Source: Escherichia coli (GTDB taxonomy: Bacteria; Pseudomonadota; Gammaproteobacteria; Enterobacterales; Enterobacteriaceae). From it: a stretch of DNA of 64,000 nt. The notes beneath the pieces are model-generated. The model worked only from the letters and a program-made list of their open reading frames with translations. It was not told the DNA's origin and ran no database searches. Position numbers and translations under genes: made by a program. How positions within the stretch are numbered: the first letter of the stretch is position 1; the number at the start of each line of letters is the position of its first letter. Positions 6,676 to 47,440 of the stretch are shown here, piece after piece. Where the stretch lies: NCBI RefSeq assembly GCF_044324785.1, contig NZ_CP172127.1; one strand, 5' to 3'.

Positions 6676-6703
6676 TACTAATTTAACCCTCTGTTTTTAC
6701 AGA
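6676..6703. repeat. attL core (guaA terminator hairpin AACCCTCTGTTTTTACAGAGGGTTTTTG)
   Basis: Matches 47412-47440 (AACCCTCTGTTACTACAGAGGGTTTTTT) over 11 + 14 bp; lies immediately 3' of the guaA stop. Confidence 0.65.
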
Positions 6704-6773
6704 GGGTTTTTGTTTTTATGTATTCATTTCTATTCACTCTACACCATATTTTTCGGCGGTACAGGTGACGGTA

Positions 6774-6788
6774 TTACCTTAAAGGTAT
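6774..6788. promoter_or_regulatory. operator-like palindrome TTACCTTAAAGGTAT in the attL arm upstream of int
   Basis: TTACC-N5-GGTAT, one mismatch to the dispersed TTACC-N5-GGTAA motif. Confidence 0.35.
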
Positions 6789-6830
6789 ACTCTCATACCG
6801 TCATGAAAATGGTTTCTATACGGGTGAATT

Positions 6831-8081
6831 GTGCTTACCGATACAAAATTAAAAAACCTCAAGCCGCAGGACAAACTGTACAAGGTCTCCGATCGTGACG
6901 GGCTGTATGTAGCTGTGCTTACGTCAGGCACGGTCTCGTTTCGCTATGACTACCGTATCAACGGTCGCCGCGAAACACTGGTAATTGGGCAGTATGGGCG
7001 TGACGGTATCAGCCTGGCAGAAGCGCGAGAAGAACTGATTGCTGCAAAGAAGCTGCTTAAAGCAGGCCAGTCACCGGCTGCGGCTAAACGTGACGGTATT
7101 AAAAAGATTCGTGGTGCCGAGACGTTTGCGGTACATACCGACAGTTATATGAAACACGTCATCCTGGCTGACAGTACCCGCGCAATGAAGCAGGCGGTGA
7201 TCGACCGTGACATACTTCCGGTTCTTGGCAACAAAATGATGGCTGAAATTACCACATCAATGGTTCGTGATTTGTGTGACCGGATTGTCGAACGCGGTGG
7301 TCGGGCAACAGCAGTACAGGCCAGGGAGATCATCAGCAGCGTATACCGTCACGCCAATGACCGTGGTCATGGTTTGTTTAATCCTGCGGCTGACATTAAA
7401 CCTTCGTCTATCGCCATATTTAAACCACGAGAGCGAACACTGACACCAGAAGAAATTGGCCTGTTCTTCCGCACGCTGGATGCCATTGGTGCTATGGGCA
7501 CTATGAAAATGGCTTTAAAGCTGGTGCTTATCACCATGGTTCGTAAGGGAGAATTCACCAATGCAACGTGGGATGAAATAGATTTTAAAAAATGGACATG
7601 GACAATTCCTTCAGACCGCATGAAGGGAAGTCGGGCGCACGTTATTTACCTGCCTAAACAGGCACAGGATATATTAGTCGGGTTGCAGATGTGCGCTGGT
7701 GGAAGTGAATATCTGGTTCCTGGTCGTTACAATTTCCGGAAGCCATTATCTAATGCCGCGCTGAACTCTCTGATCGACAGAACGGTGAAAATAATAAATG
7801 AAGATGGTGAGCATATTCAGGACTTCACTGTACATGATATGCGCCGTACAGCCAGTACGTTGTTGCATGAGGCTGGTTATCCTTCAGACTGGATTGAAAA
7901 GGCTCTGGCACATGAGCAGAAAGGTGTGCGCGCCGTATATAACAAAGCGGAATACGCCAGACAGCGCGCCTACATGTTGCAGCAGTGGGCCGATATGATT
8001 GATTCCTGGATTAACGGGGAGCATACAGATCTGATTCCGTTCTCCCCGTCGAAGTTTGAGAAGTGGATAGCGGGGGAATAA
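6831..8081 (+). CDS. tyrosine integrase (P4-like family)
   Basis: GTG start; N-terminus LTDTKLKNLKPQDKLYKVSDRDGLYV is typical of P4-type integrases; C-terminal catalytic region with R...H..R...Y (HDMRRTASTLLHEAGY); 416 aa; adjacent to attL. Confidence 0.9.
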   Translation: MLTDTKLKNLKPQDKLYKVSDRDGLYVAVLTSGTVSFRYDYRINGRRETLVIGQYGRDGISLAEAREELIAAKKLLKAGQSPAAAKRDGIKKIRGAETFAVHTDSYMKHVILADSTRAMKQAVIDRDILPVLGNKMMAEITTSMVRDLCDRIVERGGRATAVQAREIISSVYRHANDRGHGLFNPAADIKPSSIAIFKPRERTLTPEEIGLFFRTLDAIGAMGTMKMALKLVLITMVRKGEFTNATWDEIDFKKWTWTIPSDRMKGSRAHVIYLPKQAQDILVGLQMCAGGSEYLVPGRYNFRKPLSNAALNSLIDRTVKIINEDGEHIQDFTVHDMRRTASTLLHEAGYPSDWIEKALAHEQKGVRAVYNKAEYARQRAYMLQQWADMIDSWINGEHTDLIPFSPSKFEKWIAGE

Positions 8082-8100
8082 TTTTGCCCGACACATCCCT

Positions 8101-8365
8101 GTGCCGCCGTTCTGTCAGAAGAACCCTGCCTTGTCGTTGATGTACTCCGCGTGAGTCTGGATATCACGCAGGCATTTGCTCACACCGACGATGTAGCAGA
8201 ACATGGTGGTCAGCTCCGCCGCCGCGCCCGATACGTCGTGCCCGTCGTCCTGTAACTGGTTCAGCAGATTCATCAGCAGTGAGTGCTCCGTCAGGCCGAG
8301 AACACCAGACGGCGAGTGAATCAGGCTGCGGTAGCCGGGCTTCAGTGGGGCACTGTATTCTTTTT
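8101..8365. repeat. ~265-bp direct repeat, copy 1 (antirepressor C-terminal coding region plus ~14 bp 3' flank)
   Basis: About 97% identical to 41007-41270 by visual alignment (five mismatches noted). Confidence 0.85.
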
Positions 8366-45233: not shown

Positions 45234-45453
45234 ATATTGAGGATTAATCTTAGTAGCCGACTTGCTTATTACGAAGTAAGTTCGGCTTCTTTCTTCTTTA
45301 ATTGTGACTGAGAGGTACACTAGACCATTTTCTGAACGAAATTTTCATTGCCGTAGAAGGTAGAAATACAGCGTTTTGAGGTAACTATTATCCTTAAATG
45401 GTTTATTATGTGTGAATCTTCAATAGTAAGGAGATTGTTATGCGTAATAAACG

Positions 45454-45867
45454 GTGTTCATTATGTCAGCCCATCTAACTACTGATTCTTTAAATCAATG
45501 GCTTAGTGTGAGCTCTCTTGCTGCAGTTATCGTAGGCGTTCCGCCAGAGGTGGCGCTCGGTGCTCTTGCTGGTGCGGTAATTTTTGTTACCTCTGCGGTA
45601 GAGTACCCAATTCATCGTCGCGTACTCTTATCGATGCTTAGCTTTCTCTGTGGACTTCTTTTCTACAAACCAGCAGCATCAATTCTTATCGGCATAGCCA
45701 GCCTGATCCCTACCATCACGCAGGACTCTTTTGAAAAAGGGATTGTTTTCTCTGCTGGCGCATTCGTGTCAGCAATTGTCGCTGTGCGTATTGGTATATG
45801 GCTCTACCACCGTTCAGACAATCCACGCGATTTAATTCCGGGGAGAAAAGACGATGGTAACGCATGA
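45454..45867 (+). CDS. integral membrane protein (possible holin or antiholin)
   Basis: 137 aa; multiple hydrophobic helices; overlaps the next membrane protein gene. Confidence 0.4.
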   Translation: MFIMSAHLTTDSLNQWLSVSSLAAVIVGVPPEVALGALAGAVIFVTSAVEYPIHRRVLLSMLSFLCGLLFYKPAASILIGIASLIPTITQDSFEKGIVFSAGAFVSAIVAVRIGIWLYHRSDNPRDLIPGRKDDGNA

Positions 45868-46162
45868 GTTTTTTTTGCTTATCACCAATGCAGTTATTTG
45901 TACTGGCATAGCAATTCGCGTTGTCACATTCCGGCGTAACGGCTCTCAACATCGAAGATGGGGAGGGTGGCTTGCTTATTTCCTTATTGTTGCTGCGGCC
46001 AGTATTCCTGTTCGTGTCGTCTATGCAATCTGGTTACGCACGCCAATGGCTGTGGATTTATCTGAGGTCATTATCAACGCTGTCATGCTTGCCGCGGTTA
46101 TTAAAACACGCGGTAACGTTGTTCAGATTTTCAAAATATCGAGGTCTAAACATGGAGATTAA
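45854..46162 (+). CDS. holin candidate
   Basis: 102 aa; 2-3 TM helices with a charged C-terminus; immediately upstream of the endolysin. Confidence 0.5.
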
Positions 46163-46781
46163 ACAATTCCAGCGAGCTGCTGGTATTAGCGAGGCGCTGG
46201 CCGCACGCTGGTTCTCGCATATAACTTCTGCGATGAAAGAGTTTGGTATCAGCAAAGCAGAAGATCAGGCAATGTTTATTGCTCAAGTCGGGCATGAGTC
46301 TGGGGGCTTCACCAGGTTGCAGGAGAATTTCAACTACAGTGTCAGCGGACTGGCTAACTTCGTTCGGGCTGGGCGTCTCACTCAGGGGCAGGCTAATGCA
46401 CTGGGTCGCCATGCTGGTGAACCACCATTGCCACTCGAGCGCCAGCGAGCGATTGCCAATCTGGTGTACAGCAAACGCATGGGGAACAATGCCCCCGGCG
46501 ATGGCTGGAATTACCGTGGCCGCGGACTTATCCAGATTACCGGTTTGAATAACTATCGTGATTGCGGAAACGGCCTGAAAGTGGACCTGCTGGAGAATCC
46601 TGAACTGTTGGCGCAGGACGAATACGCGGCTCGTAGCGCGGCGTGGTTCTTCTCCAGCAAAGGTTGCATGAAGTATACCGGCGATATTGCACGTGTAACT
46701 CTGATTATCAATGGTGGCAGGAATGGCATCGACGACCGGCGCGCGCGGTACGTCACTGCCAGTAAGGTGCTGGCGGTATGA
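46152..46781 (+). CDS. endolysin, glycoside hydrolase family 19-like
   Basis: Start at [21 protein letters not shown]...; [10 protein letters not shown] motif typical of GH19 phage endolysins; 209 aa. Confidence 0.75.
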
Positions 46782-47260
46782 TCTGGGCATTCGTAAAAGC
46801 ATACTGGAAACAGTTGATTATCGTGGCAGTGCTTGCTGTTCTGGTCATATCAGGAGTTGTTGCCTGGAATGTACACGGTATCCGTCAGTACGACGCCGGG
46901 TATGCGCAGGCGAAAGAAGACTGCAAAGCCGAAGAAGAAAAAGTTCGTCAGTACTACGAACAGGAGAAAGTGACCAATGAACGTGAAGCTCAGCAGAGGA
47001 TCGACCAGGCGCGCAATGATGCTCTTGATGCTGCCGCTAGCGCTGGCCGGTTGCAGCAACAACTCTTTGCCATCCGTGAGCAGCTCAGGCAGTATAACGC
47101 CATTGTCGGCGCTGGGTCGTCAGCCGCAGACACCGGAGTTTTGCTTGCCGACGTGCTCAGCAAATCTCTCGAGAGAAACAGACAACTGGCAGAGTATGCT
47201 GACCGGGCAGCCGAAGCCGGAAGAGTCTGCGAAAAACAGTACGACACTTTGACCAGATAG
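46778..47260 (+). CDS. i-spanin (Rz-like)
   Basis: 160 aa; N-terminal TM helix then coiled coil; ATGA overlap with the endolysin stop. Confidence 0.7.
47016..47252 (+). CDS. o-spanin (Rz1-like lipoprotein) embedded in the +1 frame of Rz
   Basis: [16 protein letters not shown] lipobox; Pro/Ser-rich mature part. Confidence 0.6.
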   Translation: MMLLMLPLALAGCSNNSLPSVSSSGSITPLSALGRQPQTPEFCLPTCSANLSRETDNWQSMLTGQPKPEESAKNSTTL

Positions 47261-47411
47261 CATGGCATTTTTCATGGTACTGATTTCCGGTGACGGTATA
47301 TAAAACGGTACGGGAAAAATTGAGATTTGGAAAAATGTTATCACTCAATTGGTTATGGTTATCGTAAATAATTGAGTGGGAATGATTTGACCCTGCACTA
47401 TGAATGAACAA

Positions 47412-47440
47412 AACCCTCTGTTACTACAGAGGGTTTTTTA
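47412..47440. repeat. attR core (duplicate of guaA/yfgI terminator hairpin)
   Basis: Direct repeat of 6676-6703; the arm motif GGTGACGGTAT occurs inside both att arms (6764-6774 and 47289-47299). Confidence 0.65.

Follow-up and report, generated by a model that had tools for sequence, protein, structure and literature searches.

Several integrative elements insert in the 3′ end of a gene and bring a replacement end with them: phage 21 and e14 do so at icd, and P4, P22 and numerous islands at the 3′ ends of tRNA genes (see, for example, A. Campbell's reviews of chromosomal insertion sites). The 3′ end of guaA serves Uetakevirus phages as such a site: TL-2011b is inserted at guaA (PMC3293862), epsilon15-like prophages have one single site in Escherichia coli (PMC3603311), and ZX5 integrates at the guaA 3′ end through the core attgagtgggaatgatt, which was verified by polymerase chain reaction (PCR) and Sanger sequencing and is stated to be proven for phiV10 and epsilon15 too (PMC9782041). 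Further, the island GIsul2 uses GAGTGGGA at this end of guaA for recombination, its integrase (Int) acting on 19-bp attachment (att) sites that share this 8-bp core (PMC9376610). Here we describe a prophage between guaA and yfgI in a 64,000-nucleotide stretch of the E. coli contig NZ_CP172127.1 (assembly GCF_044324785.1), hereafter the window. We are nearly certain that the element is a temperate podophage of the phiV10/epsilon15 type (Uetakevirus), inserted by Campbell-type site-specific integration at the guaA 3′ end through a 17-bp core. Its type, attachment site and core are already known, and the candidate Int sites discussed below already stand in a RefSeq annotation.

The junctions of host and phage DNA involve the following features.
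5061 to 6638, plus strand: guaA (GMP synthase), an intact 525-amino-acid open reading frame whose last four codons and TGA stop lie inside the attL core.
6624 to 6640, plus strand: attL core ATTGAGTGGGAATGATT, the left repeat copy, consisting of the last four guaA codons, the TGA stop and 2 nt.
6641 to 6684, plus strand: phage spacer of 44 nt, identical in phiV10 virion DNA and conserved in five free phages.
6685 to 6718, plus strand: phage-borne rho-independent terminator-like hairpin (stem 6685-6708, TTTT loop, T-tract to 6718) between guaA and int.
47371 to 47387, plus strand: attR core ATTGAGTGGGAATGATT, the right repeat copy, placed by alignment with K-12.
47388 to 47447, both strands: native host DNA, comprising a 24-nt spacer (47388-47411) and the guaA/yfgI terminator (stem 47410-47437, TACT loop, T-runs on both strands).
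47478 to 48017, minus strand: yfgI (DUF5384), intact, convergent with guaA and keeping its native terminator.

The 17-bp core is an exact direct repeat (6624-6640 and 47371-47387) of which 0.03 would be expected by chance, and exact copies of the published core attgagtgggaatgatt flank the prophage, the left one overlapping the guaA stop. We compared both ends with 5,426 complete E. coli genomes. The non-lysogen alignment of window positions 6300-7100 ends at query position 341 (window position 6640) and that of 46900-47700 starts at query position 472 (window position 47371), so that the host/phage junctions fall at 6640/6641 and 47370/47371, i.e. 44 and 41 nt ahead of two similar hairpins, with 40,730 bp of prophage-specific DNA (6641-47370) between them. 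The left-hand alignment runs on into int in 567 of these genomes, and the Rz-yfgI junction is present in 362. The empty site of K-12 (MG1655) consists of the guaA end with ATTGAGTGGGAATGATT, the 24-nt spacer TGACCCTGCACTATGAATGAACAA, a TACT-loop hairpin and yfgI; it equals the window base for base from 47371 on, holds the right-hand hairpin only and has no counterpart of the 44 nt that follow the left core (6641-6684). In the free phage, attP runs contiguously through Rz, the P arm, the 17-bp core, the 44-nt spacer, a TTTT-loop hairpin, the P′ arm and int. Positions 26600-26930 of phiV10 are collinear with, and near-identical to, window positions 47250-47387 joined to 6641-6830, and the virion genomes of epsilon15, Tyrion, SPN1S and PAT1 show the same contiguous layout. 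The right arm, core and left arm of the prophage, when joined, reproduce the free-phage attP.

The two hairpins, AACCCTCTGT-NNNN-ACAGAGGGTTTTT, lie at 6685-6711 and 47412-47438 and are identical at 25 of 27 positions, the differences being the two middle loop bases (TTTT on the left, TACT on the right); the base after the T-run differs as well. Both fold (stems of 10-12 bp; -15.9 and -17.8 kcal/mol; z -5.7 and -5.4) and both match a terminator-like pattern on the plus strand. The left one has a 10-bp stem, the TTTT loop and the tail TTTGTTTTT, the right one a 12-bp stem, the TACT loop and a T-run, and on the minus strand a T-rich tail, UUUUGUUCAUU, follows the native (right) copy only. Both are thus terminator-like and are predicted to be intrinsic (rho-independent) terminators. 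The phage copy is annotated as a terminator in phiV10 (26781-26813) and epsilon15, and its stem is maintained by G·U-compatible changes in epsilon15, Tyrion and a Klebsiella prophage. The left hairpin is phage DNA, as free phages have it in one piece with the core, the spacer and int; the right one, which belongs to the stretch from 47371 on that matches the K-12 empty site, is the only native host terminator here. It lies 40 nt past the yfgI stop and now follows Rz as well.

A first-pass annotation of the window had correctly placed a prophage between guaA and yfgI, but it had the crossover occur inside a shared guaA/yfgI terminator hairpin, with a reconstituted hairpin at each junction and a prophage extending from about 6676 to 47440. 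Such an event would account for an element that is flanked by two near-identical hairpins (25/27) and for the retention of a terminator by both host genes. We nevertheless give it almost no credence: the left hairpin is separated from the guaA stop by 44 nt of phage DNA and the right hairpin is preceded by 24 nt of host DNA, the loops are lineage-specific (TTTT in all free phages, TACT in E. coli empty sites), the break points lie population-wide at 6640 and 47371, and the PCR-verified published core is the 17-mer. Both junctions lie outside the hairpins, the K-12 and free-phage sequences exclude halves or duplicates of one hairpin, and the prophage-specific DNA is 6641-47370 in place of the interval first given. 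Prophage-free genomes, with which that annotation had itself proposed to compare the locus, show a different junction, the outcome that it had named as refuting its proposal. Several of its other statements held up better. The hairpin does occur twice, the right copy where it had been placed and the left about 9 nt above the 6676-6703 first assigned to it, and the differences between the copies were roughly as described. The guaA gene is not truncated, since the 525-residue frame is full length compared with that of other E. coli (residues 1-525 are 98.7-99.6% identical to guaA of other Escherichia). A terminator-like hairpin does stand after each host gene, although the cause is a replacement supplied by the phage and not a split hairpin. 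We also searched the 5,426 E. coli genomes for scars of a hairpin-to-hairpin deletion (guaA, phage spacer, hairpin and yfgI flank with no prophage) and found none; the best full-length matches were ordinary empty sites at 86.7% identity.

The guaA-yfgI intergenic region of some E. coli holds other insertions. Examples are NZ_CM142696.1 (hit H156) and NZ_CP060075.1 (hit H161): one genome has IS200C beside the native hairpin, and in strain G3/10 the homology stops just past the hairpin.

We explain the arrangement as follows. A P4-family tyrosine integrase with an arm-binding N-terminal domain recombines attP with attB inside ATTGAGTGGGAATGATT, and attP brings along, directly after the core, the 44-nt spacer and an intrinsic terminator of the phage. 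Once the phage has integrated, identical phage codons complete guaA, and the phage terminator (6685-6718) follows. In the lysogen this terminator would end the guaBA transcript and shield the co-oriented int gene from read-through, and in the circular phage it would end the late/lysis (Rz) transcript before int. The native bidirectional terminator (47410-47437) stays with yfgI and now also stands behind the phage Rz genes.

Klebsiella pneumoniae narrows the region of strand exchange. Its guaA ends in ATTGAGTGGGAGTAA, and in the K. pneumoniae prophage ST11-OXA245phi3.2 attR retains host sequence after ATTGAGTGGGA, whereas attL has the phage ATGATT. The block of identity available for exchange in this host is therefore the 11-bp ATTGAGTGGGA, which includes the GIsul2 core GAGTGGGA. 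Because the shared block contains this experimentally defined core, strand exchange most likely takes place within GAGTGGGA or its immediate neighbourhood. GIsul2, with its P4-family Int, targets the same guaA end, and its core lies inside both the 17-mer and the 11-bp K. pneumoniae block; it is a mobilisable resistance island rather than a phage, however, and has arms and cargo unrelated to those of the prophage described here. In the K. pneumoniae lysogens L018 (3080-3150, reverse strand) and L005 (440-560) we noted that the end of guaA changes from GAG-TAA to GAA-TGA, i.e. to a synonymous codon and a different stop codon, which shows that host sequence is truly replaced there by the phage-supplied 3′ end.

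As in the integrators of the icd and tRNA type, attP carries a homologue of the target 3′ end that keeps the gene intact, here reaching as far as the downstream terminator, and int adjoins attP. The present case departs from that type in two respects. First, the coding part that is replaced is tiny (four codons and the stop) and identical in E. coli. Second, the homologous flank is split in E. coli by an unrelated spacer, giving two separate repeats.

The last point bears on why a phage hairpin and a host hairpin resemble each other. We scanned one genome per species with the pattern GAGTGGGAATGA-N15-45-AACCCTCTGT, which needs GAATGA and the exact stem; the native Salmonella flank lay outside this comparison. 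The scan returned native guaA flanks from Escherichia, Enterobacter, Dryocola, Buttiauxella, Klebsiella indica and Serratia silvae, together with one attR-type junction (Atlantibacter) and one attL (in an Enterobacteriaceae metagenome-assembled genome, MAG). We class these flanks as native because host genes lie downstream: where enough downstream sequence was available (Atlantibacter, Buttiauxella and K. indica) the flank is followed by pdeF, ppx and ppk and by no int, and in Serratia dppA-like and pepT genes lie downstream and no int was found. A further match of the scan, in the Lachnospiraceae MAG L011, does not adjoin guaA and was set aside as chance. With K. pneumoniae counted in, at least eight genera share the stem AACCCTCTGT/ACAGAGGGTT in their native guaA terminators, and the loops vary. 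The spacers are also related. That of phages of the Tyrion/epsilon15 type is identical to the native Atlantibacter spacer at 26 of 34 positions, and the native spacer of Enterobacter sp. R1 shares with a phage-type attL an identical run of 16 nt, ATAGCTAGTTCATAGC.

Judged from these alignments, the phage block of core, spacer and terminator is a homologue of the Enterobacterales guaA 3′ flank, and the hairpins are alike for this reason and not because integration split or duplicated one of them. The native E. coli spacer is different and shorter (its 24 nt are unrelated to the 44 nt of the phage), and the homology consequently appears there as two separated repeats, of which the first-pass annotation noticed the second (the hairpin) and missed the first (the 17-bp core). 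Short GC-rich palindromes with T-runs would be expected to show some resemblance even if the two terminators had arisen independently, but convergence or chance is highly improbable here, given that all 10 stem pairs have the same sequence, that the A-tract and the T-tract are identical, that at least eight genera have this stem in their native guaA flanks, and that the phage spacer is homologous to those of Atlantibacter and Enterobacter. An Enterobacteriaceae MAG, L014 (7969-8391), has a phage-type attL at guaA. Its int is about 50% identical over 142 aligned residues and may be decayed or badly assembled, and the locus retains the arm motif CGTGACGGTAT and an inverted copy.

The conservation of the stem could also mean that the hairpin is part of the recombination substrate, as an accessory element bent by integration host factor (IHF) or as a second core-type site that is recognised in attP and attB alike, with termination secondary. 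Neither among phages of four host genera nor among the host genera themselves does the stem vary, unlike the spacers beside it, and the epsilon15 record has an IHF site that overlaps the 5′ half of the hairpin. We nonetheless consider this quite improbable. The distance from core to hairpin is 44 nt in attP but 24 nt (E. coli), about 29 nt (K. pneumoniae) or 25-47 nt (elsewhere) in attB, a spread that fits poorly with a fixed protein-DNA architecture. Further, 19-bp att sites with the 8-bp core GAGTGGGA serve the GIsul2 Int at this guaA site, and every feature of an intrinsic terminator is present in the hairpin.

The integrase gene and the candidate sites to which its product may bind are listed here.
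6764 to 6803, both strands: P′-arm candidate Int sites, namely GGTGACGGTAT at 6764-6774 (plus) and an inverted TGACGGTAT at 6795-6803 (minus).
6831 to 8081, plus strand: int (Pfam Arm-DNA-bind_3, Phage_int_M and Phage_integrase; phrog_1; tblastn).
6999 to 7009 and 7089 to 7099, plus strand: intragenic candidate Int sites, two copies of CGTGACGGTAT within the int coding sequence.
47289 to 47299, plus strand: P-arm candidate Int site GGTGACGGTAT, with a second ACGGTA 12 nt downstream; invariant in five free-phage attPs.

Int has the Pfam domains Arm-DNA-bind_3 (residues 2-87; 8.4e-20), Phage_int_M (1.6e-11) and Phage_integrase (2.5e-19). By tblastn it is 98.8% identical to its phiV10 counterpart over 416 amino acids, 99.5% to that of ZX5 and 87.6% to that of epsilon15, and overall its amino acid identity is 98-99.5% to E. 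coli members and 82-88% to Salmonella, Enterobacter and Klebsiella members. The first-pass annotation had reported the 11-bp motif GGTGACGGTAT in both att arms, and it is exact at both positions (6764-6774 and 47289-47299); the proposal that it marks arm-type integrase sites is plausible in view of the conservation of the motif, the Arm-DNA-bind_3 domain of Int and the epsilon15 annotation. The 9-mer TGACGGTAT occurs seven times in the window where 0.32 copies are expected, and six of these map to the att arms or to the 5′ part of int: at 47291 in the P arm, at 6766 (plus) and 6795 (minus) in the P′ arm, and at 7001 (plus), 7091 (plus) and 7343 (minus) in int. Neither this motif nor the hairpin is a chance repeat. 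The arm motif is invariant in five free-phage attPs and two attLs (the P′-arm site coincides with an invariant run, 6766-6778, in the attP alignment), and phages from four host genera show no change in the arm copies or in the intragenic copies 6999-7009 and 7089-7099. Only six stretches of 11 nt or more are invariant within int, the two conserved intragenic copies among them, and the third-codon positions of these copies are invariant in 6 of 6 cases, compared with 25-34% for the int gene. The third intragenic copy, 7343-7353 (minus), was dropped as a site, as it is not conserved in relatives. The epsilon15 RefSeq record (NC_004775.2) annotates the four corresponding 10-mers, GTGACGGTAT, as "protein_bind: integrase", along with IHF sites, RNase III sites and a terminator. 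The copies of GTGACGGTAT in both arms and the two inside int are therefore likely to be arm-type Int sites, a reasonable idea that is not new, being already annotated in epsilon15. Two more invariant blocks lie nearby, CGGTACATACCGAC (7129-7142) inside int, which is an inverted pair of the CGGTA half-motif, and TATTCACTCTA (6730-6741) in the P′ arm, with the terminator on one side and the arm site on the other.

The copies of GTGACGGTAT could instead be the operator of another regulator (such as the AlpA-like excisionase or the repressor), or an RNA hairpin or RNase III site accompanied by coding by-products. The inverted pair 6766-6803 folds in the int 5′ leader (134 nt, z -3.05) and the epsilon15 record labels this stretch as an RNase III site too; the intragenic copies encode R-D-G-I twice, and the third of them (7343-7353) is not conserved. 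We regard these alternatives as rather unlikely, for Int has a bona fide Arm-DNA-bind_3 domain that needs arm sites, and the P-arm copy (47289-47299) lies across the core, outside any int leader in the prophage, as fits sites on two arms. Moreover, a change in the inverted copy of Tyrion is uncompensated, indicating that sequence rather than pairing is conserved, and no synonymous position (of 6) varies in the two intragenic copies. The RNA-structure version was rejected on these grounds: the inverted pair folds, but no compensatory change was seen and the Tyrion change breaks the pair.

The arrangement resembles that of lambda in its heterobivalent integrase with an arm-binding N-terminal domain, in a motif present on both arms and in the IHF sites annotated in epsilon15. 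It differs in the sequence and layout of the motif, in the terminator between the core and the P′-arm sites, which puts those sites 124-163 nt from the core, and in the two conserved motif copies inside int. Further, unlike lambda sib, the terminator here precedes int and remains joined to it in the prophage.

Taking the origin and the function of these elements together, we tentatively suggest that the attP block of about 88 bp is a captured or exchanged guaA 3′ flank, that its terminator was selected as an insulator of int and that the intragenic copies of GTGACGGTAT are functional Int sites, a combination that we think quite possible but would not call probable. Several considerations weigh against the interpretation given here. 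Block transfer could have run in either direction, the phage capturing a host flank or phage DNA overwriting host flanks. Sequence alone narrows cleavage to the 17 bp (or the 11 bp) and no further. The candidate arm sites are assigned from conservation and a curator's annotation, and we infer excision and termination activity in this strain. Lastly, a sigma-70 scan of 6500-7000 gave no promoter between the phage terminator and int.

The remaining prophage features agree with its assignment to Uetakevirus.
6641 to 47370, plus strand: prophage genes in the order int, ant, methylase, AlpA-like excisionase, RecT/exonuclease, repressor, replication, terminase, structural genes, tailspike, holins, endolysin and Rz/Rz1 (from the phiV10 gene map and PHROG matches).
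42477 to 45233, plus strand: tailspike gene, with a GC content of 0.41 compared with about 0.50 for the prophage.
46778 to 47260, plus strand: Rz/Rz1 spanin genes (phrog_312; synteny with phiV10 p30/p30a).

The gene order agrees with that of phiV10 by synteny and PHROG matches, and Uetakevirus genomes (phiv142-3, PAS61, HEMP4, ZX5, TL-2011b and phiV10) cover 72-87% of the prophage at 97-98% identity. Rz/Rz1 are the final phage genes ahead of attR and read toward the native host terminator. The members found at guaA (phiV10, epsilon15, vB_EcoP_ZX5, TL-2011b and phiv142-3) are alike in integrase, host locus and genome architecture, and share the 17-bp core, the attP spacer, the phage terminator and the GTGACGGTAT sites with the prophage described here. 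Inducibility, excision that regenerates attB and attP, and podovirus particles are known for relatives only (ZX5). Differences from the relatives are limited to mosaic cargo, and the att sites show none: the oac O-acetyltransferase gene, present in phiV10 and PAS61, is absent; the tailspike differs from that of phiV10 and is low in GC; RecT and the exonuclease are separate open reading frames; and Ant is present as two paralogs, accompanied by C4/isrK and sRNA-Xcc1-like RNAs.

Concerning the Ant paralogs, Rfam gathering-level matches to the C4 antisense RNA (RF01695, 78.6 bits; 41762-41849, minus) and isrK (RF01394, 74.7 bits; 41868-41944, minus) lie directly upstream of a Bro-N/Ant anti-repressor gene (41021-41758, minus), and this region, next to the tailspike gene, is a P1/P7 immI-like c4-ant control module within a Uetakevirus prophage. 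The second Ant anti-repressor paralog (8115-8765, minus) is immediately downstream of int, with a match to sRNA-Xcc1 (RF02221, 64.8 bits; 8806-8895, minus) just upstream of it. A direct repeat of 257 nt (8114-8370 and 41020-41276; 95% identity, 32.9 kb apart) corresponds to a C-terminal domain (phrog_450/15539) common to both ant genes, of which the open reading frame 42024-42299 (minus) is a third, stand-alone copy; these repeats are a potential substrate for internal deletion via homologous recombination. We rejected the 257-nt repeat as an alternative prophage boundary, as it is the ant C-terminal domain and not an att site. The prophage also carries a tRNA-Arg(TCT) gene (23032-23108, minus) between the terminase and portal genes. 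Iteron-like repeats CCCAAAAACGGGA (14579-14761; periods of 18 and 24 nt, about five copies) lie within a DnaT-like replication-initiator gene (14325-15140), and this region is the probable phage origin of replication.

Overall, this prophage is correctly bounded by the 17-bp core repeats, which lie at the guaA stop codon, and the hairpin that adjoins guaA is phage DNA. About 10% of complete E. coli genomes (567/5,426) have this integrase at guaA. The locus exemplifies the classic arrangement in which an integrating element brings its target gene a new 3′ end, here together with a terminator. It also shows that a phage terminator homologous to one conserved across Enterobacterales can mislead the calling of att sites from repeats. 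If the insulator reading is true, the terminator would stop read-through from guaBA in the prophage, and from the late operon in the phage, from driving int; and if the intragenic copies of GTGACGGTAT are Int sites, they would give autoregulation of the integrase or an unusually extended intasome.

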